Below, in pieces: positions 50,130-64,000 of a DNA stretch of 64,000 bases. The notes under the pieces are model-generated. The model did not search any database. It had not been told where the DNA came from and saw only the letters and a program-made list of their open reading frames with translations. The stretch comes from Candidatus Poribacteria bacterium (GTDB lineage Bacteria; Poribacteria; WGA-4E; WGA-3G), in contig OZ251518.1 of NCBI GenBank assembly GCA_965242965.1, positions 4,498,181 to 4,562,180 of the forward strand, in the 5' to 3' direction. Numbering within the stretch: position 1 is the first letter of the stretch; every line of letters starts with the position of its first letter. The translations under genes were made by a program, and so were the position numbers.

Positions 50130-50525
50130 TGCCAGCCAAACGCATGGCGAGGGACAGGCCCTCGCGCTACGGTTACGGACGGTTTTTCGACACGTATGAA
50201 ATTCGCGAGGGACAGGCCCCCGCGCTACGGTGTCCGAGGGGTTCGCGAGGGACAGGCCCTCGCGCTACGGTTGCGGCCGTTTTTGATACGTATAAAGTTC
50301 GCGAGGGACAGGCCCTCGCGCTACGGTTACAGCCGGTTTTTCGACACGTATGGAATTCGCGGGGGACAGGCCCCCGCGCTACGGTGCCCGAGGGGTTCGC
50401 GGGGGACAGGCCCCCGTGCTACGGTACCCGAGGGGTTCGCGAGGGACAGGCCCTCGCGCTACGGTTACGGCCGGTTTTCGACCTGCATGAAAGTTCGCGG
50501 GGGACAGGCCCCCGCGCTACGGACG
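50130..50525. repeat. regular tandem array of family-A GC-rich hairpin repeat (GTTCGCGAGGGACAGGCCCTCGCGCTACGG), 10 copies alternating ~30-nt and ~11-nt linkers
   Basis: Direct inspection. The linkers are near-identical to each other (TTACGGNCGGTTTTTCGACACGTATGNAA and TGYCCGAGGGG). Confidence 0.8.
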
Positions 50526-50536
50526 AAAAAGGCGTA

Positions 50537-51622
50537 TTATATCTCCGGCACGCGCACTGCTACCTCTTTCCCGGCTTCGTGCGAACGGAAAATGCCATCC
50601 ATAATCACGTTCGTGAGCAGCACTCCCTCCGGCGGAATTGGCGAGGACCCGTCCATCTTGACTGCCTCACGGAAGGCAGACATCTGTGCTTCCCACACAT
50701 CTACCTCTGGGAAACCGGAGAAACGGATAGTCGTCATGCCTTCCGGTGGGTTCGGTTCCGCCGTGAGTCCTTCCGCCTCAGCCAACTTCTTGAGCTCATC
50801 GGTATACGCATCGGCATAGACAACGGGGCCATCCAACGAAATTCCCGCTTCCTTGCCGAGGCAGAAGTTGCCGCCAAGCGAGTCGTTGTGAATCGCCCAC
50901 GAGATCTTGAATACCATCACGCCGCCGTTTTCAAACCGCACCCACGCCGCTCCGAATTCCTCAACATCCATCACGCCGCGCCACCTCGGGTCTTGCTGCG
51001 AAATGTGGTTTTCCGTGATGGCGGAGACGCGCACCGGCTTCGGATACCCCATCGCATACAGCGAGTTGTGCATGTTGTAAACGCCGATGTCCACCGTCGC
51101 GCCCGCGCCCGCTGTCTTCTTATAGATGAAGGTGTGTCCCGGATTGCCGCGCCGCCTGCATCCCGCAGATTCAGAATAGTAGATATCGCCGAGTAACCCG
51201 GCATCGACTACCTTCTTCGCGAATTGGAGGCGCGGGCTAAACGTGCTGTGAATGCCGATCTGCAAGATTTTGCCGGAGGCTTTCGCTGCGCGCACCATTG
51301 CAGTGGCATCCGCCAACTTCGCCGCCATCGGTTTCTCGCAGAACACATGCTTGCCCGCGTTCAACGCCGCCACCGTCGGCCGGCGATGTCCCTGATTATA
51401 CGTGCAAACGCTCACCGTATCAATGCCGTCCATCTCCAGCATCTTGTTGTAGCTGGTGAAGACGTGCTTTTTTGGAACGCCCCATTCCTCGGCGGCTTGC
51501 TGCGCCTTACTCTTGACAATATCACACACTGCGACGATTTCAAAACCGCCGGCTTTTTCGTAGGCTCTCTGGTGCGCACGTGAAATGCCACCCGTGCCAA
51601 CGATACCTACTCGGATAGTCAT
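50537..51622 (-). CDS. Gfo/Idh/MocA family oxidoreductase (second paralog)
   Basis: ATG at 51622 with AAGGAG RBS. MTIRVGIVGTGGIS Rossmann N-terminus. The track's extension to 51898 runs through repeats. Confidence 0.7.
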   Translation of the reverse strand: MTIRVGIVGTGGISRAHQRAYEKAGGFEIVAVCDIVKSKAQQAAEEWGVPKKHVFTSYNKMLEMDGIDTVSVCTYNQGHRRPTVAALNAGKHVFCEKPMAAKLADATAMVRAAKASGKILQIGIHSTFSPRLQFAKKVVDAGLLGDIYYSESAGCRRRGNPGHTFIYKKTAGAGATVDIGVYNMHNSLYAMGYPKPVRVSAITENHISQQDPRWRGVMDVEEFGAAWVRFENGGVMVFKISWAIHNDSLGGNFCLGKEAGISLDGPVVYADAYTDELKKLAEAEGLTAEPNPPEGMTTIRFSGFPEVDVWEAQMSAFREAVKMDGSSPIPPEGVLLTNVIMDGIFRSHEAGKEVAVRVPEI

Positions 51623-52055
51623 GGTGTCATCTCCTTTTTTCATTGATGCAAAATCTTCTTGTCTTCCCGTAGGAGGGACATCCTTGTCCCGATTTCCCGT
51701 AGGAGGGACATCCTTGTCCCGATGATGAATTCCCGTAGGAGGATTTTCCTTTGTTCGAGACCAGGAGGTCTCTCCTACGGTTGTTGCCTTGATACACCGT
51801 AGCGCGGGGGCCTGTCCCCCGCGATCGCTCGACCCGCGCGAAAAACGCACGCAGACTAAGGCCGTTTTCCGTTCCGAGCGGGTTTCCCCCGCGATCACCG
51901 AAGGGCTCTCCTACTGAGGATAATCGAGACCAGGAGGTCTCTCCTACTGCAGATAACTGAATACACATTTTAAACGCGATTCGGTTTGCAATGCAAGCGA
52001 AAAATGTGATATACTGATTATAGAAACGCAGTCCAAAAGTAAATAGGAGGAAAAC

Positions 52056-52700
52056 ATGGATACGCAAACCGGTTTCACGCGCGGGATTAACACCCGGTGG
52101 GTTAGTAATCCAGAAGGCTTCGTCTTCGGCGAACGTTATCGCGAGTTGCAAAAGGCGTGTGAAAAATGTTGTGGGTGGCATCTGTTATTGCCGCTCGGCA
52201 CTGCTGAGAAATACTACCTGCGCGGCATCAGCATTCCGAATGCGGATGCATCGTGCGATGCGGCGCAGACGGTGATAAACCTCGCGAAGTTACTCGTCGA
52301 TTCGTTAAATGACGATGCCCTGAAACGGTTAATTCCGCGCCAAAAGCGCGAGGAACTCAACGGGCTTTGGGGCATTGCGCTGCTTGAATTTGCCCTGTCT
52401 TTCAATGCGATTCAGGGGGCAGATGTTCATATCGCGTTTCTGCGGAAACTTCAGTGCCTCCGCGCCGATGGGAACGTGTGCAAATATCCGCTGGTAGAAA
52501 TTATTGACGGTGCCACGGATGTTCTGGATTACTTCATCGCGCTTTTAGAGAATGGCCGCATTGAGGCGATTGTCAAGCGAAATGCTAGAGATACCGTGAA
52601 CGCGCTCTTTGCGGAAATTCGGGCAGGCTATACCGCGGGTAAACCCGATGCTTCTGTCAATCATGACGAAGTGATTTATGAGTTGAAGGCGAAACCATGA
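52056..52700 (+). CDS. hypothetical protein, translationally coupled upstream partner of PIN toxin
   Basis: 214 aa with AGGAGG RBS. Its stop overlaps the PIN gene start (ATGA). No recognisable domain. Confidence 0.35.
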   Translation: MDTQTGFTRGINTRWVSNPEGFVFGERYRELQKACEKCCGWHLLLPLGTAEKYYLRGISIPNADASCDAAQTVINLAKLLVDSLNDDALKRLIPRQKREELNGLWGIALLEFALSFNAIQGADVHIAFLRKLQCLRADGNVCKYPLVEIIDGATDVLDYFIALLENGRIEAIVKRNARDTVNALFAEIRAGYTAGKPDASVNHDEVIYELKAKP

Positions 52701-53113
52701 TTTTTGTTGATTCTGGGGCATGGATTGCGGTGCTGAATCCGAAAGACCGGCACCATGAAGAGGCGAACGCAACTTTCGCCGGCTTGCATCGGAACATTAC
52801 ACTCGTAACGACCGATTATGTGATTGACGAAACCGCGACTCGTCTCCGATATGACACCAACCACGCGCTTGCTGTCAAGTTCTTGGATGCTATTGAAGAG
52901 TTTGAGATGTCCGGGGATTTAACGGTTATAGCAATCACTGCCGAAGTGTTTCAGGAAGCAAAAGCCCTTTTCCGGCAACGCAATTCTCCGCGGCTCCGGC
53001 TCTCATTTACGGATTGCACCAGTTTTGTGGTGTGCTGGTCGGATGTCCGCATCACGAAGGCTTTTGCTTTTGACGAGGACTTCCCGAAGATGGGGATTCC
53101 TTTGCAGCGGTGA
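52697..53113 (+). CDS. PIN-domain ribonuclease (VapC-like toxin)
   Basis: 138 aa. N-terminal acidic motif (MIFVDSGAWIA) and second motif (TTDYVIDE) match PIN catalytic acidic residues. Confidence 0.65.
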   Translation: MIFVDSGAWIAVLNPKDRHHEEANATFAGLHRNITLVTTDYVIDETATRLRYDTNHALAVKFLDAIEEFEMSGDLTVIAITAEVFQEAKALFRQRNSPRLRLSFTDCTSFVVCWSDVRITKAFAFDEDFPKMGIPLQR

Positions 53114-53187
53114 GGAGAGTGCAAATAGGATTTCTGCATCTCTGCACTGTAAAGAGGGGAGGCTCTTCACATCCCCGATCGTTCGTG

Positions 53188-54378
53188 TTAAATTTCTCGG
53201 CCGTCGTCTGGGACAATCACGCTTTTTTCTAGTTTCTCAACATACTCTTGGTTAATGATACCTTCGCCGGCCTGGAGAAACAGATTATCGTGAAAAGCAG
53301 CATTGAGCACGTTGCCGCATTGTTTGTGGATGTTGCCAGTGGTGCGTAACTCTAAACCCTCCAGAAGCACGCGCAGTGCCTCTTCCTCGAAGGGATAAGT
53401 TTGCGGAAGTGTCTCCAATCGCGGCGTTTGGAGACGGTACTTGCGATGGTTGAGGCGTTCTGTAACATAGTGAATCGCTTCATCAACCGTCAACCCTTGG
53501 AAATAGACGACATCGGTAATACGCTCTGGCAAGCCGCGCCCTAAAACGAGCGTAATAACGTTGCGGTACACTCTAGAGCAGACGAGATCTGTCCGCAGAA
53601 ACACCGTGAAGAAATGCGGAAGCCGATCGATTAGGTCCCGGATTCCTTGTGTTAGTTCGCGAAACGGTACCCGATCTACACAGAGCAGATTCTCCAGTTC
53701 GTCAATCCAGAGGCAAACACGCGCGTGCCGGTGAATGTCAAGGCTCGGGTCTAAACCGATAAGGCACTGTATCACCCCCGCCAGCACTCGGAACCGATCT
53801 TGCCTTTTGATGTTCCGGGCGATGCCGAGTTCCCGCAATTCGGTGCGGGAACTACCCTCTAGGAAATAGTTACGCAATAAAGTTGGCTTCGCGTCTGATT
53901 CCTCTGTCCCCAGTAACCAAAAAGCACGCGCGAGTTCTTCACCGCCAAGCACTTTGTGAAGAGTTGCCCACGCTTCTGCCTTGGGTAACTCACCGATGGC
54001 ATCGCGGACAATTTCCCGAACGCGCGTCATGCCGAGCGTATCAAGGAAATCCGTGTAAAAATCATTGACAGCGTCCTCAATCTGCATCGGAACGCGCAGA
54101 TGGATGGCACGAAACCGTTCGCCCTCGCTAAAAAATGGCGGTAAGGCACCTTGATACTTAAAGCGGGACGAGGCATAAGCCTGCCCCTCAGCACGGGGCG
54201 CACGGAAAAGAACAACCTGCGGATGAGAGGACAAGGTTGCTTCCCGCAAGATTTTGGAAAACTGCCGATCCAATTTCTCCATGCCTTCACAGGTGACGTG
54301 TTTGGCACCCGGTAGCACGGTAAAGTCAAAGGGGTTCGCTTTTAGAAAAGCCAAACTCCAGTCCCATTTCTGAAACAT
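53188..54378 (-). CDS. hypothetical protein, possible AAA+/ORC-like NTPase with degenerate P-loop
   Basis: ATG at 54378 with AAGGAG RBS; the track's 54477 start is an extension. Walker-B-like motif (RVCLWIDELENLL) and Cdc6/ORC-like post-sensor-1 block (ITDVVYFQGLTVDEAIHYVTERL). No canonical GxxxxGK[ST]. Confidence 0.3.
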   Translation of the reverse strand: MFQKWDWSLAFLKANPFDFTVLPGAKHVTCEGMEKLDRQFSKILREATLSSHPQVVLFRAPRAEGQAYASSRFKYQGALPPFFSEGERFRAIHLRVPMQIEDAVNDFYTDFLDTLGMTRVREIVRDAIGELPKAEAWATLHKVLGGEELARAFWLLGTEESDAKPTLLRNYFLEGSSRTELRELGIARNIKRQDRFRVLAGVIQCLIGLDPSLDIHRHARVCLWIDELENLLCVDRVPFRELTQGIRDLIDRLPHFFTVFLRTDLVCSRVYRNVITLVLGRGLPERITDVVYFQGLTVDEAIHYVTERLNHRKYRLQTPRLETLPQTYPFEEEALRVLLEGLELRTTGNIHKQCGNVLNAAFHDNLFLQAGEGIINQEYVEKLEKSVIVPDDGREI

Positions 54379-54648
54379 TGTCAATCTCCTTTTTTGCTTG
54401 CAATGAGTGCGGCAATGAGGAGCATGTCTCCGCAACTGCCGCCGATTTATCGTTTTCAACTTTATATATATTAACACATCTGATTAGCGGATGTCAACTG
54501 AATTCCGAAAATTTTAAAATTTGGCATTTTTCGCGAAATATGCTATTATATACTTAGAATCCGAAATCACAGTCTTTTGAAACAAATTTTCTGCTCAAGT
54601 CGTTATATCTAATTTAGGGGACTTTCCTTAGAAAGGGACATTTAACTC
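54379..54648. promoter_or_regulatory. AT-rich divergent intergenic region between the 396-aa gene and dndC
   Basis: 270 bp at about 30% GC with TATTATAT-like -10 candidates on both strands. Confidence 0.35.
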
Positions 54649-56055
54649 ATGGGAACCGAGACATCCTACAGCATCTTCAATACGCGCACGCTTGCCCAGG
54701 TCTATCGCGAAATTCAAGAGGTCTATCTTGAAAACGCGCGCCCCTGGGTCATCGGGTACAGCGGTGGAAAAGACTCAACGACAGCACTCCAACTCGTTTG
54801 GTATGCTCTCGCGGAACTGCCGGCCGAAGAACGGAAGTATCCGGTTTACGTGATTTCATCCGACACCCTCGTTGAAACGCCGGTGATCGTTAGTTATATC
54901 ACCGGCACGCTGGCGCGAATCGAAGCGCATGCGAGCGAACAACAGATGCCCTTTCACACCGAACTCGTTCGGCCGAAGACGGAGGATACCTTCTGGGTTA
55001 ACCTCATCGGGAAGGGCTACCCGGCACCCTACTCACGCTTCCGATGGTGCACCGACCGGCTCAAAATACAGCCGGCGAATCGGTTCATCATAGAAAAAGC
55101 CTCGGAATACGGCGAGGTTATCCTCGTGCTCGGTTCACGGAAAGGGGAGAGTGCCACCCGCGATCAGGTGTTGAGTCTGCATCGTCTCAAAGATTCGTTG
55201 CTGTCACGGCATACCACACTGCCGAACGCTTACGTCTATACGCCCATCGTCGATTTCGGGTTGAACGATGTTTGGATGTATCTGCTCAGCAATCCGCCGC
55301 CGTGGGGAGGGGATAACAAGCAGCTCGTCACGCTTTATCGAAACGCCAACGCGCAAGGCGAATGCCCACTCGTCGTTGACGAGACTACGCCTTCCTGCGG
55401 AAATAGCCGATTCGGATGTTGGACCTGCACGGTTGTCTCCAAAGACCGGTCCATGGAAGGCCTCATTGACAACGGCGAAGAGTGGATGTTGCCGCTGCTA
55501 GAATTTCGAGACTTCCTCGCCGAAACACAAGACCCCGAGCGGAAGGCGGATATTCGGGAACATAGACGGCGGAATGGGAAAATCACGTTCGTGGGAGAGA
55601 AACTGATTCGCGGCCCCTATACGCTGGAATTCTGCAAGAAGTTGTTGAGGCGACTCCTTAAAACCCAGCAGCAGGTCCGCGAAGAGGGGCCAGACCAGAA
55701 CCTCCAACTCATCACGGATGCTGAATTGGAAGAGATTCGCAACATCTGGCGAACCGAACGTTCGGATTGGGAAGATGCGGTGCCGCAGATTTACAAAGAA
55801 GTTGTCGGTGAGCGCGAGTGGATTGTTGACGATACAACATCCTTCACCGCGGCGGATAAGCAACTCCTGGCCGCAGTCTGCGATGAAACCGGCGTTCCCG
55901 TTGAACTCGTCGCGAAATTATTGGATACCGAGCAGCAGATGGATGGCATGCTGCGGCGTGCGGGGATTCATTCCCGCATTGATGCAATTTTTCATGAAGA
56001 CTGGCACTCGGAAGCTGAGGCACGCGCCGAATTAGACGCGCGTGATGGACAATGA
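54649..56055 (+). CDS. dndC: DNA phosphorothioation protein DndC (PAPS-reductase-like ATP pyrophosphatase, Fe-S)
   Basis: 468 aa. PP-loop motif (SGGKDST) and a C-terminal Cys cluster (CPLVVDETTPSCGNSRFGCWTCT). Followed in order by dndD and dndE. Confidence 0.8.
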   Translation: MGTETSYSIFNTRTLAQVYREIQEVYLENARPWVIGYSGGKDSTTALQLVWYALAELPAEERKYPVYVISSDTLVETPVIVSYITGTLARIEAHASEQQMPFHTELVRPKTEDTFWVNLIGKGYPAPYSRFRWCTDRLKIQPANRFIIEKASEYGEVILVLGSRKGESATRDQVLSLHRLKDSLLSRHTTLPNAYVYTPIVDFGLNDVWMYLLSNPPPWGGDNKQLVTLYRNANAQGECPLVVDETTPSCGNSRFGCWTCTVVSKDRSMEGLIDNGEEWMLPLLEFRDFLAETQDPERKADIREHRRRNGKITFVGEKLIRGPYTLEFCKKLLRRLLKTQQQVREEGPDQNLQLITDAELEEIRNIWRTERSDWEDAVPQIYKEVVGEREWIVDDTTSFTAADKQLLAAVCDETGVPVELVAKLLDTEQQMDGMLRRAGIHSRIDAIFHEDWHSEAEARAELDARDGQ

Positions 56056-58064
56056 TTATCCATAAACTTTCCCTCAACAACTTCGGCTTGTTTCGCGGGC
56101 GGCAGACCCTTCCGTTGACACCAAACGGCACCGGGCCTGTTATCCTCATCGGTGGCATGAATGGTGCTGGTAAAACGACGCTGTTAGAAGCAGTGCGCCT
56201 CTGTTTATATGGGCGGCGGGCCCTCGGGAACCGGGTAGGGCAAAGTGAATATCACGACTACCTCTTCAACATGATTCATCGGAACCCACATTCGGTGGTG
56301 CCGTTGAACCACGCCGCTGTGTCGCTTGAATTTGAGTATACCCGCGGTGGCGAGAAAAAACGATATCGGGTTGAACGCTCTTGGGAGCATCACGGTGGAA
56401 AACACCCTACGGTTCGGGAAGGCTTGACTTTCCATGAAAATGACTGGCCAAGTCCCGAAATTGACGAAGGACATTGGCAGGATTACATCAACGAACTCAT
56501 CCCAATCGGCGTGTCTCAATTCTTCTTTTTCGATGGAGAGGACATCCAGAAATTAGCGGATGATTCCACCCACAATGGCTCTCTCGCCGAGTCCATTAAA
56601 GCGTTGCTCGGGCTCAATCTCGTTGAGCGGCTGCAATCGGATCTGCGTATCTACTCAAATCGCCTCGTTAAACAAGCGAGTCCCGAACCGGTGCAGGAAG
56701 AAATCGATGCAGCGGAATCAGAGGTTGCTGTCCTTACCGCAGAGCTCGCGAAGGCAAACGCGAAAAAAGATTCTCTCCAGGTCCGCATTGGAAAGTTATC
56801 TGGGGAAATAGCGCAACAAGAAGCACGGATTGCCGCTGAAGGCGGCGGCTATGCCAAAAAACGCGACATACTGAAACTTCAGCAGCAGCAGTGCCAGACA
56901 GAGGTTGAGAAGGCAGAGGACGATATTCGCGAGATGTGCAACGGTCTGTTTCCTTTCAGCCTCGCACCGAAACTTCTTAGGGACTTCAAGGAACAGCTCC
57001 TTAAAGAAATCGAATTAGATGAGTGGGAAGCGAAAAATCGCGCGCTAACTGAACAGAACACCGCGGTGCTTGAAACCCTTGAATCTGGTGATTTTTGGGA
57101 GGATGTCTCTCTATCGGGGGAACAAATCACGGATATTCGCGCCAAACTTGCGCCGCTGCTCCAGACACAATTTGAGCGTCCTGAATCGTTGCGCGGTTTC
57201 ACAAAACTCCGGGACCGGTCTCCATCGGAACGCCAGAAATTGTTAAAATGGATTGATGCTTGTCTCAATGAAATTCCTCAACAAGCGAGGAAATTGTTCA
57301 AAGCACTGAGAACGGCAAAATCGGAACTAGAAAAAGTAGAACAGGCTCTTCAGAGAGTGCCATCCGACGAACTCCTGAAACCGCTGATTGAGAAACTCTC
57401 GGCGTTAAATCAGACACTCGGCCAGTTGCAAAAACAGGAACAAGATGCGGACAAATCCGTCCGGTCTTTAATGCATCGACTTGCAGAGGCAGAACGAAAA
57501 TTGGAAAAGTTGTATCACGCTGAACAACGCGGGCGCGAACACCTCCAACGTCAACATCGCGTGAGCAACGTGCAATCGGTGCTTTCCACCTACACAACGC
57601 GACTCACCGAGACGAAGATTTTGGCATTAGGAAATGCGATAGTCAAGGGATTCAACCAGCTCTCTCACAAGCCGGATAGAATCAAACGGGTTGAGATACA
57701 CCCGCGAACGTTTGCGGTAACGCTCTACGATACCCGCAGTCAGCCCATCACCAAGGACGAATTATCGGCGGGTGAAAAGCAGATTTACACTACCGCGCTG
57801 TTATGGGGGTTGGCGAAAACCTCCGGCAAGGCACTGCCGATGATTCTTGACACGCCTTTGGGCCGTTTGGATAGTGATCATCGCCACCTGCTAATTGAGC
57901 AGTATTTTCCTTATGTCAGTCACCAAGTGGTGTTGCTCTCAACTGATACGGAAGTTGATGAGCACTTCTGCACGCTGTTGAAACCGCACACCTCGCATAC
58001 GTTTCATCTGGCGTATCAGCATGCGGAAGCTTGCACCACAGTTGAAAACGGCTATTTTGGGTAA
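56052..58064 (+). CDS. dndD: DNA phosphorothioation protein DndD (SMC/RecF-like ABC ATPase)
   Basis: 670 aa with a 4-nt ATGA overlap with dndC. N-terminal Walker A (GMNGAGKTT), FFFFDGEDI block, central coiled coil, C-terminal D-loop region (ILDTPLGRLDSDHR). Confidence 0.8.
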   Translation: MIIHKLSLNNFGLFRGRQTLPLTPNGTGPVILIGGMNGAGKTTLLEAVRLCLYGRRALGNRVGQSEYHDYLFNMIHRNPHSVVPLNHAAVSLEFEYTRGGEKKRYRVERSWEHHGGKHPTVREGLTFHENDWPSPEIDEGHWQDYINELIPIGVSQFFFFDGEDIQKLADDSTHNGSLAESIKALLGLNLVERLQSDLRIYSNRLVKQASPEPVQEEIDAAESEVAVLTAELAKANAKKDSLQVRIGKLSGEIAQQEARIAAEGGGYAKKRDILKLQQQQCQTEVEKAEDDIREMCNGLFPFSLAPKLLRDFKEQLLKEIELDEWEAKNRALTEQNTAVLETLESGDFWEDVSLSGEQITDIRAKLAPLLQTQFERPESLRGFTKLRDRSPSERQKLLKWIDACLNEIPQQARKLFKALRTAKSELEKVEQALQRVPSDELLKPLIEKLSALNQTLGQLQKQEQDADKSVRSLMHRLAEAERKLEKLYHAEQRGREHLQRQHRVSNVQSVLSTYTTRLTETKILALGNAIVKGFNQLSHKPDRIKRVEIHPRTFAVTLYDTRSQPITKDELSAGEKQIYTTALLWGLAKTSGKALPMILDTPLGRLDSDHRHLLIEQYFPYVSHQVVLLSTDTEVDEHFCTLLKPHTSHTFHLAYQHAEACTTVENGYFG

Positions 58065-58070
58065 GGCACA

Positions 58071-58436
58071 ATGCAATTAAACCGAATTCACATTTCCGAA
58101 GATTCACGTCATAAGTTGAGCGTTTTGAAGGCGCGCACTGGGTTGTTACCCAACGTCCTCTGCCGGCTTGGGTTAACGCTTTCCCTTGAGGAATCCAACG
58201 AGCCAACCCTTGATGCTGATGCGACGGATGGCTCAGAGTTTAACCGCTTTACCTTGATGGGGGAGTGGGATCCGTTGATTGTGGGACTCGTGGAGAGACG
58301 CTGTGCTTCCAACGGAAACGGCACAGACAACGGCGCGCTTGTTAAATACTTCCGCGCGCATCTGAACCGGGGGGTAGTTTTGCTTTACGGCCGCGTGAGA
58401 GGATTAGAAGACTTGACGAACCTTCTTCCAGAATAG
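58071..58436 (+). CDS. dndE: DNA phosphorothioation protein DndE
   Basis: 121 aa, starting 6 nt after the dndD stop. Size, position and N-terminus (IHISEDSRHKLSVLKARTG) fit DndE. Confidence 0.65.
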   Translation: MQLNRIHISEDSRHKLSVLKARTGLLPNVLCRLGLTLSLEESNEPTLDADATDGSEFNRFTLMGEWDPLIVGLVERRCASNGNGTDNGALVKYFRAHLNRGVVLLYGRVRGLEDLTNLLPE

Positions 58437-58516
58437 TATTACTTTTTGCGAATTTCCATAACTACTCAGAAAAAGAATCAGATGTACGATAAATTCACTT
58501 GCCACACAGGGCATTG

Positions 58517-58999
58517 TTACCAAACATCCGAGATTAAACTTTTGTATGGATCCCAATTCAAAAGTAAATCCACCAAGTTTGTGATTCTGTCGCCAGGCAT
58601 ATCTTCAACCTGATTCTGAACCTCTATAATTCCACCGTTGGCGTATTCTTCCGCGATAGTTAGGATCTCCTCTTGATCTGTCAATATGTCAATGTCGCCA
58701 GTCACAGTGAGTGCTAATGCCCGAAGTAGTGGAACATCCGTATCGTGTGAAAATTGAGCCCAAGCGAAAATCATTTCTTTATCTTTTCCGAGCGGTACCC
58801 GCTTTTTCTCGTGGTAACCTATGAAGGCAGCGAGCATGAAAATATTTTTCATGGACTCAAACGGGGGTAAATCTTCCTGACCTGCGTTTTCTCTCGATTT
58901 CGTCAGGGCGACGTAGATTGAATGATGGGACTTGTCAATCCGGATGCGATCTCGAGCTCTGGATTGTGGATTTCTACGTTCCTCAGTGTTATCTAGCAT
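58517..58999 (-). CDS. hypothetical 160-aa protein, last gene of the nuclease-helicase/ATPase operon
   Basis: ATG at 58999 with AGGAGG RBS, 17 nt after the ATPase stop. No recognisable domain. Confidence 0.4.
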   Translation of the reverse strand: MLDNTEERRNPQSRARDRIRIDKSHHSIYVALTKSRENAGQEDLPPFESMKNIFMLAAFIGYHEKKRVPLGKDKEMIFAWAQFSHDTDVPLLRALALTVTGDIDILTDQEEILTIAEEYANGGIIEVQNQVEDMPGDRITNLVDLLLNWDPYKSLISDVW

Positions 59000-59016
59000 C
59001 GTATTATCCTCTCCTC

Positions 59017-60981
59017 CTAAATTTCTTCAATGGTGGTTGTCTTCGTCTGCGGATTGAATTTCAATTCATATTCTGCACCGATTCGAGGCTTAAGGTTTGC
59101 CTTTGCTTCTGGACGCAATTCCTCATCAGTCACGAATAGGACTAGCTGCTTGGCAATATCAGGAAGGATTACCGTTATGTTTTTCCTATGTTCGCTGGAA
59201 AGCCTGCCGAAAGGCGTATCCATTACAATCGGAAATGGTTCCTCCTTCAGTTGAGGGATCGTTTTCTGAACAGCTACCTTTGCCATTGCGGCGATGAAAG
59301 CGAGGCTGAGGACCTGACGTTGCCCCGCAGAAAGTTCAGGCAGTACGTCCGCGCCATTTTCGTCGATCACCTGAAGTTGGTAATTTTCGCTCAGACGAAC
59401 ATGGGCAAAATGATCGCCGTTCCACACCAAACGTTTGAAAATTTGCCCAACTTCCACTTGGACTTGCTCACGTATCTCTTTTGAGAATATAGCGTAAATC
59501 GTCTTCATCGCGGTCGACGCATCGCTGGCAAGTTTCCAAAATCTTTTTAGTTCTTCGGCTTTGGCGTTTGAATCCGTTTCAGTGCTGATTTGCTGCTCTT
59601 GCTTAGCTATGCCTTGGTTGATTTCCAGGATTCTCCCCTTAGTTTCGTTTATCACTTCTTCTAATTTGGGGATTTTCGCTTCATATTCCTTGCGCCGTTC
59701 TTCTAAGGCACGGGCTTCATCATGATCTAGATTTTCCAATTCGCGTCTAATGTTTTTTAAACGCGTTTCCTTCGCCTTTATATCTCGATCTAATTGTTCC
59801 GCCTTCCCCAAAACCAATTTTAAATTAGTTGGAAGGTTCCCTACTCGATCTTGCACTAAAAGGTTCAGATCATAAGTTTCCCGCGCGACATGTCCCAAGT
59901 CTGATGAAACAGATTGATTAAGAAGGTTACGGATAGTTTGAAACTCTGGGCTTCGATTGTCGATAGGTCTGCCACAGAGGCAACGCATCTCATTAAGAAG
60001 ATCGCTAAGAAGTCCTGCAGGAATTCCTCTCTGGACTTCCGCCAAAATTTCCAATGCCTCATCAATAGCAGGTTTTGCTAACGCGATAAAGCCTTGATTA
60101 GCCAAACTCCGAATTTTTTCTTGGATTTCCGCTTTTTGGTGCTGAAACTGCTCTAGTTCTGCCTCAATTGCTTTACGTTTGTTGACAAGCATGCGTAATC
60201 CCTTGATGTCTTCCAGACGTTCGTCAATCTCCCGCTTTTGCTGCTTGGCAAGTGTCAATTCTTCCTGAGAACTCGCTATAACATCTGACAATTTGTCACG
60301 GGATGCTTCTTTCGCTGCTTTTTCATTGAGCAAAGCCTTTAGTTTGCCTGAGGCATGCTTCCTCGCTTCCCGCTGGTACTCACCGGTAATGTCTTCTAAA
60401 TGTTTCATGCCGCGGGCAACCTCTTCAATTTTTAAGACATTGCGCACAGCACTCTCAACTTCCTTTTTGCGTTCTGGCCTCGTGAAGTTGTTAATCTTCT
60501 CGCCATCAAAAAAGAAGTGAACACTCACATCCTCAGGCATTATTGAACTAATCCAGGCTGATGCTTCGTCATCACTGAATTCGCGAAACTTGATTATTTC
60601 TAAGGAAAAGGGTGTTTCAATCCGCGGATACAGTGTTTCTCCTACCGATAAATGCCTATGAATTTTCCGTTTGGCACAGAATTCGACTTCCTGGTCAGGA
60701 AACATTCCTTGATAAGTAAAACGAAGTTCTACCGAGGTTACCACGTTTTCTCCCTCTGCAAGAGCACGCCTATTCACCAATTCGCCAATCTGTCCGATGT
60801 TTTTCTCAACAAATTTGTCGCCGTATAAACACCAGTTGATAGCAGTAAAGAGGGAGGTTTTCCCCGCGCCATTAACACCGTGAATAACCGTAACATGACG
60901 GTCGTCACTGGTAGCGAAATTAATGGTGTGTTCCCCATAGTACTGCCGAAAATTTTTCAATGTTATGCTGCTAAGCTTCAT
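59017..60981 (-). CDS. DndD-paralog SMC/RecF-like ATPase (AAA_23-type)
   Basis: ATG at 60981 (MKLSSITLKNF). Walker A (GVNGAGKTSL), HFFFDGEKI block matching the FFFFDGEDI of the adjacent true DndD, long coiled coil, C-terminal IVMDTPFGRLSSEHR matching DndD ILDTPLGRLDSDHR. Confidence 0.65.
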   Translation of the reverse strand: MKLSSITLKNFRQYYGEHTINFATSDDRHVTVIHGVNGAGKTSLFTAINWCLYGDKFVEKNIGQIGELVNRRALAEGENVVTSVELRFTYQGMFPDQEVEFCAKRKIHRHLSVGETLYPRIETPFSLEIIKFREFSDDEASAWISSIMPEDVSVHFFFDGEKINNFTRPERKKEVESAVRNVLKIEEVARGMKHLEDITGEYQREARKHASGKLKALLNEKAAKEASRDKLSDVIASSQEELTLAKQQKREIDERLEDIKGLRMLVNKRKAIEAELEQFQHQKAEIQEKIRSLANQGFIALAKPAIDEALEILAEVQRGIPAGLLSDLLNEMRCLCGRPIDNRSPEFQTIRNLLNQSVSSDLGHVARETYDLNLLVQDRVGNLPTNLKLVLGKAEQLDRDIKAKETRLKNIRRELENLDHDEARALEERRKEYEAKIPKLEEVINETKGRILEINQGIAKQEQQISTETDSNAKAEELKRFWKLASDASTAMKTIYAIFSKEIREQVQVEVGQIFKRLVWNGDHFAHVRLSENYQLQVIDENGADVLPELSAGQRQVLSLAFIAAMAKVAVQKTIPQLKEEPFPIVMDTPFGRLSSEHRKNITVILPDIAKQLVLFVTDEELRPEAKANLKPRIGAEYELKFNPQTKTTTIEEI

Positions 60982-61141
60982 GTGCTTTGACCTCTTCTTG
61001 AATAATTCGGCGGATTTCAAGTTTGATTCCTTGAGGCTTCCTCATGTCCAATTTTTGGAGCTCTGCCTCAAGAACCTTCTCAATTACATTCCTTACTTGG
61101 GGTGGTAGAGTCTGTTTGAACTCTTCTATTCCGTTTTTCAT
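60971..61141 (-). CDS. small 56-aa charged helical protein translationally coupled between helicase-nuclease and ATPase genes
   Basis: Not in the ORF track. ATG at 61141..61139 overlaps the TGA of the upstream gene (ATGA). Its stop overlaps the ATPase start by 11 nt. Sequence MKNGIEEFKQTLPPQVRNVIEKVLEAELQKLDMRKPQGIKLEIRRIIQEEVKAHEA. Confidence 0.35.
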   Translation of the reverse strand: MKNGIEEFKQTLPPQVRNVIEKVLEAELQKLDMRKPQGIKLEIRRIIQEEVKAHEA

Positions 61142-63204
61142 TCAGAGCCTCCCAGTACACCCAACAGATTGTACCCTTTAGCGACTTCCCAAATCCTACT
61201 ACGGGCATGAAACGGATTCAGGGCCATTCCGGCGAATTCGTTAAACCTCTTCAGTTCCCGTGCAACAATTTTACGCTCAGCGGCAAACGTTGCACTGGGA
61301 TACTGCCGGTACGCCTGAGGCGGAACCGCGACGAGGTCATGTATCTCAGCGTGTTCTTTACCGGGGGCTTTCCGGAGAATTCGCCCGCGTCGTTGGATAA
61401 ACTCCCTCGGATTGCTGCTGCTCGCGAGGATATAGGCGGTTTGCGTGCTCGGCACGTCAACCCCTTCATCTAGACACTTCATCGCTACTAGTGCCTGGAG
61501 GTGTCCCGATGCGAACATCTCCAACAATTCTCGCCGTTCAGTTGTGGATTCCTCTGCGGTAAATTTGGCAATGCGCAAGCCCAAATCGGTGAGCATCGGA
61601 AGTACTGAGTCAATTTGCCCAGGGGCACAGTAAAATAGCGCGTGATGAAGAGGCTCGTTTCTGTCCTCTAGCAGCTGCTCTAACACCTGCAACTTGTTTT
61701 CTGCTTTATTCAGCAGTGTTGCCCGTTTTATCAGTAACCTTTCAAGAGCCTCATTAGGCTCGTCGGTATTTGCGTGACGATACAGTCGCGCGATTCTATC
61801 GGTGAGGTTTTTGTACTCGTCAAGTTCCTCATCTGTCAATTCGACGAGATGGGGATAATAACAGTAGGGACAAAGACAACCTTCTTCGATCGCTTTGCGA
61901 AGAGAAAATTCGTAAACGGTTTCCCTAAAATATCTCTTGAGAGCAGCAGTCCCTTCATTGTCAAACCACCGGTTGGGCGTTGCCGACAAACCGAGCCGGT
62001 AATCGAAAACTTCCGGAAGTTTCTGTCGACTCTGAGTTGCTCCAAGATGATGAACTTCGTCGGCGACGAAAACGGCGGCACGTTTCAACTTGGAAAGCAG
62101 TTTCTGCATAGTGTCAGCGATGAAGGTGCTATGCGTCGTAATGGTACACACAACGTCGCAAACCTGCCAATTGTATCGCATCAAGGCAGTATTGAATTGA
62201 GGCACCCACCGCACAGAACTTTCATAAGCCACTATCGGTTCAAATCCGAATTGTTCGGCTTCCTTGCGCCACTGGTTAACAAGATGCTTGTACGGACAAG
62301 CGATGAGAACAAACAGCGTAGCCTTTTCCTCCTTGAGTTTGGCAAGGGCAGCCAAAGCTGTGATTGTCTTTCCTGTCCCTGTCGCCATTTCCCACAAGCC
62401 ACGGCAACCGTTTGCAAACCATGCATCAATTGCTTCCTGTTGGTATGCTCTCAGGACCAGACCTCTCGGCAAATAAGCCTCTTCGGGCTCAACTACTACC
62501 GGTGAATCTGGGGATGGCATTGTGTCGTAAACTAGTTGAGGACTTAAAAGCTCCTCTGCCAACGCTGTTGGAAAATCTACAACAGCCAACGTATCCGTTG
62601 CATTATTCCATAAACGCCTAAAATTGTCAACCTTTTGTTGAACGCGTTGCTGCGTATCCTCCGACGAGAGATAAACATCAATGGATTCAAAATTGCTCAG
62701 CAACCCACCGACAGTTTCATTTAGCGACCCGGCGAATGCCACAGCGTTGTCGGTATCGTCTAAAAATATACCGAGCTTTTCGTGGTAAATCGCCCGTGGG
62801 TTTATTTCGCTTGCATCCGCTGTGCAAGCAATTTTGATATCCAAATGCCTATGCGCGATGAGCCACGTTAGCAATGCCAACCGATCTCGCGCAATTGTCT
62901 GAAACTCGCTTTCAGAGAACCCTGCCAAAAATTGTGCATTTCTGGCCTCATAGCCGCGTTGGATTGCCTCAATATCATCCCTCGCTAAGCAGGGACCGGT
63001 TACCAGCCGCATTTTTCCGCTGCGCCGAATGAAGGTTGCTAGTCCTTTGGCATAGAGTGCGAGCCCACCACTGGTGAAATACCCAACAGCGCGCCAGTAC
63101 CGCGTGGCATGACGCAGGCACGGCGTGTAAAAATCCGCGACGAGGTCTGCACCATCCGAACGATATTCAGACCTGAGTGTAAGTTCTCTGAGTGACATAG
63201 ACAT
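61138..63204 (-). CDS. fusion protein: N-terminal PLD-family (HxK...GSxN) nuclease domain + SF2 DEAH helicase (type III Res-like)
   Basis: 688 aa. PLD motif (YHEKLGIFLDDTDNAVAFAGSLNET). Helicase motif I (ATGTGKT), II (DEVHH), III (SAT), VI (QRRGRILR). Confidence 0.7.
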   Translation of the reverse strand: MSMSLRELTLRSEYRSDGADLVADFYTPCLRHATRYWRAVGYFTSGGLALYAKGLATFIRRSGKMRLVTGPCLARDDIEAIQRGYEARNAQFLAGFSESEFQTIARDRLALLTWLIAHRHLDIKIACTADASEINPRAIYHEKLGIFLDDTDNAVAFAGSLNETVGGLLSNFESIDVYLSSEDTQQRVQQKVDNFRRLWNNATDTLAVVDFPTALAEELLSPQLVYDTMPSPDSPVVVEPEEAYLPRGLVLRAYQQEAIDAWFANGCRGLWEMATGTGKTITALAALAKLKEEKATLFVLIACPYKHLVNQWRKEAEQFGFEPIVAYESSVRWVPQFNTALMRYNWQVCDVVCTITTHSTFIADTMQKLLSKLKRAAVFVADEVHHLGATQSRQKLPEVFDYRLGLSATPNRWFDNEGTAALKRYFRETVYEFSLRKAIEEGCLCPYCYYPHLVELTDEELDEYKNLTDRIARLYRHANTDEPNEALERLLIKRATLLNKAENKLQVLEQLLEDRNEPLHHALFYCAPGQIDSVLPMLTDLGLRIAKFTAEESTTERRELLEMFASGHLQALVAMKCLDEGVDVPSTQTAYILASSSNPREFIQRRGRILRKAPGKEHAEIHDLVAVPPQAYRQYPSATFAAERKIVARELKRFNEFAGMALNPFHARSRIWEVAKGYNLLGVLGGSE

Positions 63205-63732
63205 TTTCCAAGCCGAAATTCTACCTCTGTTTTACCAAGTGCTTGAAAAGACTTCACCGAATAAATAAACCCTTATCGGAGTTGCAGTGCGGATTCGCGA
63301 GTCTCCAGCCCCACAAGTTGACTGCCTCCGCCTTTGAGTTTTCGGTATGGACGCGATAGGAAACGCCGCGTCCTTGAAAAACCGAGCACGACACGCACCC
63401 GGTTCTGCGCAGTCCGAGAGCCGCCTTTTCCGTGCGACCGGCACGAACCCGCGCAATTCGTTTTAAATAGGATACCACAAAACGCGAAAATTTGCAAACA
63501 AAAAATGTGCGCGAATTTTCTGTGGATACGGTATCAACGTTCGCATTCTACAAAAAACGCCGATTTATGTCAACCACTTTTTTGTGCAAGCGATGCCTCA
63601 AAATCGGTTTTCCCATCAGTTTTTGAGGGTTTCAGCACAAATTAGCCAGACGTTCCTTTAATTTTACCACATTTTCACAAAAAAGTCAAATTTTTCTTCA
63701 TACGTTTTTGAACGCTTAGGCGAAATCACCGG

Positions 63733-64000
63733 TTATGATTTCCTCTGTCGATCTCGCCATTCAACAATCTGCCTCAAATCTTCGGCTAATTCCTGCTGAA
63801 TATCAGGCTTGTCTATCGCTTCCTCAACCCATTTCACCCCATTCTTGACCAGTTGGGTGACCGTCCGAATATATTGAGCCGAGCTCGGCGCGTCCAAGCG
63901 TTGCCCAAAGTTGGTGATTCGTTCGTAAACCGCAACCGTGTGCATGATTTGATACCGCTTGTCTTCCTCCCACTTGTCGTCCCGATTATACAGATACGTT
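63733..64000 (-). CDS. 3' end of an unidentified gene continuing beyond the window end
   Basis: The frame stays open upstream of the listed Met to the window edge (..TYLYNRDDKWEEDKRYQIMHTV..). No domain assignable. Confidence 0.3.
   Translation of the reverse strand, partial: TYLYNRDDKWEEDKRYQIMHTVAVYERITNFGQRLDAPSSAQYIRTVTQLVKNGVKWVEEAIDKPDIQQELAEDLRQIVEWRDRQRKS

Follow-up and report, generated by a model that had tools for sequence, protein, structure and literature searches.

How old is a defence island whose base composition sets it apart from its surroundings? The question is raised by a window of 64,000 nt from a Candidatus Poribacteria bacterium (contig OZ251518.1, positions 4,498,181-4,562,180), by which we mean the whole stretch that was analysed and whose own positions are used throughout. 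Its last 12 kb are lower in guanine plus cytosine (GC) and carry a dndCDE-pbeABCD cluster, a defence system based on phosphorothioate (PT) modification. An initial annotation had called this region a horizontally acquired defence island. We think it quite probable that the PT-based dnd-pbe core is old, has come down mostly by vertical descent, and lies in a long-lived mosaic defence hotspot with a turnover of modules and an inferred Dnd-Pbe mechanism. On this reading the low GC has belonged to these genes for a long time and does not betray a recent import. In what follows, L-numbers designate gene loci of relatives and P-numbers designate proteins from a large protein collection.

The dnd-pbe cluster

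The gene families were assigned by scans against PADLOC, Pfam and NCBIfam. The heart of the island consists of a dnd and a pbe operon that are convergent, tail to tail, in the window:

54649..56055, plus strand: dndC, PP-loop/PAPS-reductase-like sulfurtransferase of PT modification (TIGR03183 569.8 bits, cut-off 290.4; PADLOC DndC E = 1e-202)
56052..58064, plus strand: dndD, coiled-coil ABC/SMC-like ATPase (TIGR03185 544.9 bits, cut-off 245.85; PADLOC DndD E = 1e-217)
58071..58436, plus strand: dndE (TIGR03184 83.5 bits, cut-off 71.85; Pfam DndE E = 1.8e-22)
58517..58999, minus strand: pbeD, DndE cognate of the CxC-ATPase system, dnd_assoc_4 (TIGR04062 E = 7e-18, 65.2 bits, cut-off 74.25)
59017..60981, minus strand: pbeC, CxC (Zn-hook) coiled-coil ABC ATPase (PADLOC PbeC E = 3e-130; CLC motif at the midpoint of the coiled coil)
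60971..61141, minus strand: pbeB candidate, 56 aa, named by position (it overlaps the stop of pbeA at its start and the start of pbeC at its end)
61138..63204, minus strand: pbeA, N-terminal HKD/PLD nuclease domain fused to a superfamily 2 (SF2; DEAD/ResIII) helicase (PADLOC PbeA E = 4.6e-246, residues 4-668)

The three dnd genes are adjacent, with ends that overlap or are closely spaced, and DndC shows both the SGGKDS motif and a cysteine cluster of the CxxxxxxxxCxxxxxxCxxC type. With respect to the second operon, what had been announced as a novel nuclease-helicase module turns out to be the known and published PbeA/PbeC of PbeABCD (E = 1e-130 to 1e-246). PbeA matches the Pfam families ResIII, DEAD and Helicase_C and, weakly, PLDc_2 (E = 0.0012), as well as the PLD anti-phage family NF042964 (E = 4e-23); the motifs HEK...GSLN, GTGKT and DEVHH are readable in its sequence. 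Against TIGR04095, 'DNA phosphorothioation system restriction enzyme', which is also the name that PGAP gives to the family, it scores 557.6 with a cut-off of 600. The database copy of PbeA, a 100% match (P0121) on a 5.66-Mb contig, begins at Met3 (63198). The start of pbeC is the ATG at 60981, PADLOC alignments of its product begin at residue 14 of the open reading frame (ORF), and PbeC remains under the DndD cut-off in TIGR03185 (220.9 vs 245.85). The 98% orthologue of PbeD in L090 carries PF27807.

The 56-aa pbeB candidate gave no family match, PF20306 and the PADLOC PbeB model included. Equivalents of 56 aa and 53 aa are called as genes in L090 and L088, respectively, and the sequences of the window and of L088 are strongly different; the candidate fits the 'rapidly evolving small protein' described for the published system (PMC10853773). 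The C-terminal tail of DndC (residues 403-448; 55855-55992) is recognised both by Pfam PF20306, 'Sp-DndD' (E = 1e-9), and by the PADLOC PbeB model (E = 6e-4). A kinship between the 56-aa ORF and this 'Sp-DndD' region of DndC was considered and dropped (BLASTP E = 12; no match in Pfam).

The system to which these genes correspond, dndCDEA-pbeABCD of Haloterrigena, gives ~10^4-fold protection against the virus SNJ1; this protection is PT-dependent and needs all four pbe genes (Xiong et al. 2019, PMC6459918). A later description divides it into two coupled modules, one centred on DndD and the other on the CxC ABC ATPase, and reassigns the Pbe domains as HKD+SF2, small protein, CxC ABC ATPase and DndE cognate (PMC10853773). 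The Poribacteria cluster resembles it in its set of genes and domains, in the order pbeA-B-C-D and in the location of the pbe operon beside dndCDE. It differs, however, in that no dndA lies in the locus, in the tail-to-tail arrangement of its two operons and in that many of its relatives have extra genes between or beside the operons (a DGQHR/DndB-like gene; a GHKL ATPase gene with a PP_RS20740-family gene).

Base composition

The GC content is 49.0% for positions 52000-64000 as against 55.1% for 1-51999, the lowest value among all sliding 12-kb windows. In a 1-kb profile it ranges over 51-61% until 52 kb and over 44-55% from there to the end. Gene by gene, the island has 49.1 +/- 4.2% (n=11) and the background 54.7 +/- 1.6% (n=31, minimum 49.2%; Mann-Whitney p = 1.5e-5), and GC at third codon positions (GC3) is 0.529 for the same island genes and 0.618 for the background (Mann-Whitney p = 8e-5). 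The tetranucleotide correlation with the remaining window decreases from ~0.92 to 0.58 at 57-63 kb. The atypical composition that sliding-window GC and codon usage had been expected to reveal is therefore real, in GC, GC3 and tetranucleotides alike, and the two examples offered for it hold: positions 58441-58500, the spacer between the convergent dndE and pbeD, have 30% GC, and 63480-63700 have 36.7%. The baseline, however, is ~55% and not the ~60% that had been claimed, and the drop is not even across the island. At 54.9%, dndC is like the background; dndD, dndE and pbeA, together with the genes u214, PIN and u429 to the left of dndC, lie at 50-52%; and the lowest values, 41-44%, belong to pbeB, pbeC and pbeD.

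This departure is not peculiar to the window. In 19 loci the GC3 of the island genes is ~0.1-0.2 under that of the flanking genes, whatever the GC of the host, and the GC3 of PbeA follows host GC, being 0.27-0.39 in the loci of lowest GC and 0.50 here. Since the offset is kept across species, atypical composition becomes a weaker sign of recent import.

The cluster and its site in relatives

A scan of the genome collection with PbeA gave as top matches metagenome-assembled genomes (MAGs) of Candidatus Poribacteria, at 54-70% identity and from more than 20 species, followed at 51-53% by sponge-associated Chloroflexi, Dehalococcoidia and Latescibacterota (L019-L023). The layout pbeA-pbeC-pbeD / dndE-dndD-dndC, as seen by tblastn, is common to the Poribacteria matches; the Latescibacterota loci L020 and L021 also have the dnd-pbe layout. 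At least two of the non-Poribacteria MAGs (L019-L023) share their isolate naming (SB06xx, jk18x) with Poribacteria MAGs, which suggests the same sponge metagenome projects. There are hints here of an inter-phylum exchange of dnd-pbe within sponge microbiomes. Relatives of PbeA are present on 127 plasmids; a scan of viral contigs with PbeA found none.

The whole island can be seen in L090, whose PbeA is 98% identical and which has 97.4% nucleotide identity to window positions 54521-64000. Read in the sense of pbeA, its order is PQQ, f165, FGE-sulfatase, f267 and f276 as one flank, then GHKL, PP_RS20740, pbeA-B-C-D, dndE-D-C, PIN and u214 as the island, and finally Gfo and MT354 as the other flank. 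The dnd-pbe cluster is at this same site in L081, L088, L090, L099 and L013. (In the 97% relative L081 the locus stops within a DGQHR gene that separates pbeD from dndE; the pbe genes on the far side of this insertion can be seen in L088.) In L099, with a core methyltransferase 75% identical, the site reads MT354-Gfo-Gfo-602aa-PIN-107aa-dndCDE, and in L013 the Gfo gene (80%) stands beside dndC. On the other side, f276/f267/FGE/f165/PQQ lie directly beside pbeA in L002, L003, L005, L007, L010 and L011, at 67-85% amino-acid identity. The Gfo gene, single in the window, is tandemly duplicated in the distant relatives L098 (11047-14754) and L099 (11519-13904).

Island and flanks have diverged together. 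Between close strains, identity is 94-99% for both; in distant species it is 60-81% for island genes and 74-86% for flank genes. Compared with most of the phylum, identity is 68-70% for PbeA, 76-81% for DndC and 73-75% for the core methyltransferase.

The content of the site is nevertheless variable. In the 87% relative L086 it holds Gfo, u214, a 52-aa ORF, a 314-aa ORF, SBD-HNH, f276 and f267, with the dnd and pbe genes absent. In the 80% relative L083 it holds Gfo, SBD-HNH, DndB, a GIY-YIG-like gene, a Type ISP restriction-modification (RM) enzyme, f276 and f267, with dndCDE-pbeABCD absent. Two features of these loci matter here:

L083 12494-13450 and L086 7449-8399: PT-dependent SBD-HNH endonuclease (NF045808 E = 7e-39)
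L083 13482-13655: 58-codon 5' remnant of pbeA, between the SBD-HNH and DndB genes, with 83% amino-acid identity to PbeA residues 3-60

The remnant indicates that the cluster was lost secondarily in L083 and was not primarily absent. A truncated HNH-like ORF adjoins dndC in L018. Even strains that are 95-98% identical differ in the presence of PIN, u429 and the DGQHR/DndB-like gene. Moreover, the pbeB-C-D block of L088 (12058-14654) is 46-52% identical to window positions 58517-61141, while PbeA, DndC and DndD of the same locus are 96-99% identical. To judge from these sequences, the difference is a cassette or block swap of the putative DNA-scanning pair PbeC/PbeD. The initial annotation had held that syntenic presence of the genes in all relatives would count against acquisition; such presence was found in many relatives, but not in all, the cluster being absent from L086 and L083.

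The ends of the island

At the left, the island follows a repeat cluster that had been taken for its boundary (51650-51950):

51660..51970, no strand: REP-like palindromic repeat cluster separating the Gfo oxidoreductase gene from u214; no further host-type repeat follows it before the island

The repeats exist, but they belong to repetitive extragenic palindromic (REP)-like families that are spread across 3.7-52 kb. At least three such families, with the cores GGGACAGGCCCCCGCGCTACGGT, TCGAGACCAGGAGGTCTCTCCTAC and CCGTAGGAGGGACATCCTTGTCCCGA, give 77 matches in that interval (52, 20 and 5), where chance would give none, and none at all in 52-64 kb. They occupy 15 of the 19 background intergenic gaps and 0 of the 4 within the island (Fisher p = 0.008); copies do occur inside the island of sister strains. 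Because these families fill so many gaps and also stand on the far side of the neighbouring Gfo/Idh/MocA oxidoreductase gene, the repeats at the left are a genome-wide feature and not an island-specific edge. The spacer between Gfo and u214 is variable among strains, and homology to L086 and L083 breaks there. The long ORFs at 50144-51196 and 50196-50819, both on the plus strand, are merely translated repeat arrays (examples of the repeats are at 50144-50530 and 51660-51970).

At the right, the 520-bp stretch at 63205-63730, described as AT-rich and as the other boundary, is noncoding as stated, but it is not an edge. Beyond it lies

63733..64000, minus strand: 3' end of a gene of the PP_RS20740 family, comprising its final 88 codons, with 98.9% identity to the C-termini of the 370-aa proteins in L088 and L090

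and, because this partial gene (NF047698, E = 7e-19) runs off the end of the window, the island must continue past it. In L090, 97% identical, PP_RS20740 is preceded by a GHKL (HATPase_c_3) ATPase gene of 535 codons, and this in turn by the flank genes f276 and f267; the pair extends the island there by a further ~3.5 kb up to the conserved flanks. By analogy, the full island here would run from ~51.6/52.0 kb to ~67.5 kb, or ~15.5 kb. The proposed extent of ~12 kb is right for the part within the window and would be too short for the whole.

The pair recurs elsewhere. A cassette of the GHKL/HATPase_c_3 ATPase (~535 aa) and PP_RS20740 (370 aa) accompanies dnd-pbe in many Poribacteria, in two positions and both orientations:

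L090 6723-9465, and between pbeD and dndE in L001, L003-L007, L011, L014, L015, L017, L025 and L030: GHKL + PP_RS20740 cassette

It is not among the defence systems listed by PADLOC, and is a companion module, as yet uncharacterised, that recurs within or beside the cluster in many species.

Age and origin of the island

That defence genes gather in islands or hotspots at conserved junctions of the chromosome is a general concept in bacterial immunity, and the present locus shares with such places its conserved flanks, variable cargo, lower GC and modules that are gained, lost or swapped among strains. It differs in that neither an integrase or transposase nor a tRNA came to light and in that its core cargo, far from being rapidly exchanged, has been kept over phylum-scale divergence. 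The history that we favour is that the dnd-pbe core would have entered the site between Gfo and f276/f267/sulfatase-maturase early in the Poribacteria and would since have been inherited mostly vertically. The same locus would also have been a hotspot, at which modules were gained, lost and replaced as blocks. Of the original description as a horizontally acquired defence island, a good deal survives: the region is accessory, atypical in composition, made of defence genes and variable among relatives. What does not survive is recency, given the same flanks in distant species, the co-divergence and the conserved GC3 offset.

Had a ~12-kb block lately been imported from a lower-GC donor, with its composition still unadapted, one could readily understand the low GC and GC3, the deviant tetranucleotide signature and the intergenic gaps free of host REP repeats; the lack of the cluster in the 87% and 80% relatives, the plasmid-borne relatives of PbeA and the nearest non-Poribacteria relatives in other sponge-associated phyla point the same way. 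Against such an import stand the cluster between the same flanks in distant species and the island proteins that have diverged as far as core proteins. The GC3 of the island tracks that of the host and yet remains lower than that of the flanks in every species; the remnant of pbeA in L083 attests to a loss, and sister strains have REP copies inside the island. Furthermore, a tRNA scan of the window found none, no integrase or transposase family is recorded for any called gene of the full L090 island, and a search of L090 for direct repeats yielded no pair that spans both island ends. Recent acquisition is in our opinion largely refuted already, and very improbable. It is also possible to imagine that the junction of Gfo and f276 is a preferred site where different lineages took in related dnd-pbe cassettes independently. 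The differing cargo of the relatives (SBD-HNH, DndB+GIY-YIG, the Type ISP RM enzyme, the 314-aa protein) speaks for this, as do the pbeBCD block swap, the inter-phylum relatives inside sponge microbiomes and the GHKL/PP_RS20740 cassette, which occupies two positions and in L090 lies between identical repeats of 300 nt. However, the identity of the island genes scales with that of core genes in comparable pairs, dndCDE is colinear and evenly diverged, and neither a recombinase nor att-like repeats were seen; independent insertion seems to us unlikely. Finally, the region could be no island at all but an ordinary core region, with a GC content lowered by K/E-rich coiled-coil ATPases and low expression. 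GC1 and GC2 (the values for first and second codon positions) of pbeC and dndD are indeed below the background too, and the GC offset is conserved across species. But it is GC3, which is independent of amino-acid content, that is most shifted (0.44 vs 0.62), presence or absence varies among close relatives, and the genes belong to families of defence systems, so that we give this last idea practically no credence.

A mostly vertical history of a working dnd-pbe core also has several observations to contend with. Repeated insertion into a hotspot could also explain why distant species share the position, and the lack of host REP repeats in the island gaps would, taken alone, suggest a younger age. 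In L005/L098 the cluster lies 0.9 Mb from MT354-Gfo on the same chromosome, where MT354-Gfo abuts a DDE transposase, and across the phylum there are at least four types of flank on the pbeA side; hence rearrangement or reinsertion has also happened. The right boundary of the island is drawn from a 97-98% identical relative and not from the source chromosome itself, and is to be taken as provisional. As to function, PbeA (557.6 vs 600) and PbeD (65.2 vs 74.25) fall slightly under their NCBIfam cut-offs and PbeB is without a family match. No dndA was found in the window or in the full L090 island (by family scans of 52-64 kb and in the L090 gene calls), and no dndB in the window. PT modification and phage protection are things that we infer from homology only. 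With respect to dndB, a 589-aa DGQHR/DndB-like protein (TIGR03187 E = 6e-26) is encoded between pbeD and dndE in the sister strains L081 and L088, and DndB is dispensable in published Dnd systems.

Genes to the left of dndC

Three further genes and a spacer complete the left part of the island:

52056..52700, plus strand: u214, 214 aa, its stop overlapping the PIN start by 4 bp
52697..53113, plus strand: PIN-domain (VapC-like) putative endoRNase toxin (Pfam PF01850 36.5 bits, cut-off 23.6, residues 2-133)
53188..54378 (ORF to 54477), minus strand: u429, ORC/Cdc6-like AAA+ protein (AlphaFold2/Foldseek), 396 aa from its ATG, divergent from dndC
54379..54648, no strand: divergent intergenic region u429/dndC, AT-rich by composition (35.6% GC), presumed to hold promoters

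In view of their arrangement, u214 and PIN invite comparison with VapBC: the PIN gene is small, its start overlaps the stop of the gene upstream by 4 bp, and in some strains the toxin gene has been lost and the upstream gene kept. The likeness ends with the upstream partner, which is 214 aa long and has no AbrB, RHH, PHD or HTH (helix-turn-helix) antitoxin domain in Pfam, NCBIfam, PADLOC or PDB, databases in which u214 has no match at all. Residues 20-141 of u214 are instead homologous to the C-terminal domain of an uncharacterised family of ~550 aa (~530-600), with 252 matches at E <= 1e-3, so that u214 looks like a fragment of such a protein. Moreover, the PIN protein itself matches NCBIfam VapC only weakly, with a score of 21 for a cut-off of 80. 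In L099 a 602-aa member of the long family takes the place of u214 upstream of PIN. Within this family (P0316-P0464) one member has an N-terminal Xre-type HTH. While u214 is found at 86-94% identity in L081, L086, L088 and L090, PIN is present in L090 (96%), L099, L010 and L012 (60%) and absent in L081 and L088, with a REP-type repeat or nothing in its place. A single-sequence AlphaFold2 prediction of u214 had a mean predicted local distance difference test (pLDDT) score of 39.7 and was unusable as a model. Judging by position only, u214 is a putative antitoxin-like partner of PIN.

The u429 family numbers 74 homologues, which have no Pfam family apart from one match to TniB and of which the organism-named members are all Poribacteria. 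Searches of PDB with its sequence found no match. The AlphaFold2 model (pLDDT 81.5) has as its top Foldseek matches Orc/Cdc6, TnsC and MuB (E = 1e-4, template modelling score 0.45-0.48). The Walker A consensus GPxGGGKTHA is kept in 49 of 51 aligned members and reads APRAEGQAYA here and in the 97% relative P0241; Walker B (LWIDE) is retained. It is probable from this that u429 is inactive as an ATPase in the present strain. With its Walker A decayed here and the gene absent from the close strains L090 and L088, u429 may be in the course of being lost. The literature records both PIN endoRNases near Dnd genes and ORC/Cdc6 ATPases within conflict systems (PMC10853773). No defence family was found in PADLOC, Pfam or NCBIfam for the long proteins of the u214 family or for the intact relatives of u429. 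The view that the island's content is exclusively of the defence type is mostly right, with the reservation that no function has been demonstrated for two of its genes, u214 and u429.

A probable leader of the pbe operon

The noncoding stretch upstream of pbeA gave no family match, and Rfam at E <= 1 found none over 51.5-64 kb, leader included. Only a part of it (63471-63732, 38% GC) is AT-rich, whereas positions 63255-63470 have 56% GC. From its sequence we read 63205-63730 as a promoter region followed by a long structured leader of the pbe operon:

63545..63689, minus strand: two sigma-70-like promoters, recognised by consensus matches only, in the AT-rich half of the spacer
63255..63470, minus strand: GC-rich structured 5' leader of the pbe operon, ~215 nt, recognised by folding and by duplicated copies in relatives
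L090 5907-6194, 6423-6710 and 9693-9980, and L088 6698-6936 and 9699-9994: leader copies in relatives, found by nucleotide comparison

One promoter is TTGACA-17-TAGAAT (63573-63545), with 11 of 12 consensus matches, and the other TTGACT-17-TAAAAT with a TG (63689-63661). On the strand in the sense of pbeA the leader has a minimum free energy of -83.1 kcal/mol (z = -2.83; 0 of 200 shuffles as good), while the antisense strand folds unremarkably (z = -0.44). The copies in relatives, three in L090 and two in L088 at 84-100% identity, stand upstream of both pbeA and the GHKL-ATPase operon, and one pair of leader-bearing repeats of 300 nt in L090 is 100% identical, its two copies lying 3270 nt apart. 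An nhmmer search of all loci with the leader found copies in L088-L091 only. The six near-identical copies have no double changes and are too alike to reveal covariation. A scan of metagenomes with a 20-mer of the leader gave six chance matches in contigs of 59-71% GC, where the similarity did not extend further. This element could be a new cis-regulatory leader or else, as is still conceivable, the remnant of a pseudogene.

Proposed mechanism

By analogy with the published systems, DndC, DndD and DndE would write PT on the host DNA at a consensus motif. The sulfur is assumed to come from a putative cysteine desulfurase encoded elsewhere in the genome, given that the window is without dndA. 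The convergent pbeABCD operon would be the restriction arm, expressed from the sigma-70-like promoters through the structured leader of 215 nt. In this arm PbeC and PbeD would scan DNA, PbeB would be a small required or regulatory subunit, and PbeA, with its HKD nuclease and SF2 helicase, would either block the replication of unmarked invader DNA or cut it. On this last point the literature is divided: no cleavage by Pbe was observed by Xiong et al. (PMC6459918), and a re-analysis of 2024 argues for cleavage (PMC10853773). The pair u214-PIN may serve as an addiction or abortive-infection module, although only its PIN half fits the family.

Curiosity attaches also to the ScoMcrA-type SBD-HNH endonuclease (NF045808) that occupies the same locus in L083 and L086, where dndCDE is missing, and that is absent from the window: an enzyme of this kind is the logical opposite of PT writing. 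This would fit an arms race between PT writing and PT restriction among strains, as seen in two loci only. One may go further and imagine a balanced polymorphism, in which, within one sponge-symbiont lineage, a single junction alternates between PT-writing and PT-sparing immunity (dndCDE-pbeABCD) and PT-destroying immunity (SBD-HNH), with the shared and hitherto undescribed leader RNA of ~215 nt co-regulating the defence operons. We consider this rather doubtful; if it were true, alternating immunities would keep phages from adapting to either state.

Significance

DndCDE-PbeABCD is an already characterised system, here found as a set that is complete, apart from the assignment of PbeB, in Poribacteria, a phylum that is known only from sponge symbionts not yet in culture. 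The finding agrees with a report that defence genes, dnd among them, are enriched in sponge microbiomes (Horn et al. 2016, PMC5099237). Three dnd-linked components of the locus and its relatives are uncharacterised: the ORC/Cdc6-like AAA+ family, the u214 domain family and the pair of GHKL and PP_RS20740. For scans of genomes the island holds a caution, namely that low GC together with defence content is no proof of recent transfer, as the offset has here persisted, at one syntenic site, through divergence on the scale of a phylum. The locus could lend itself to the study of long-lived defence hotspots, both of the swapping of a putative specificity pair, PbeC/PbeD, and of the relation between PT writing and PT-dependent restriction.

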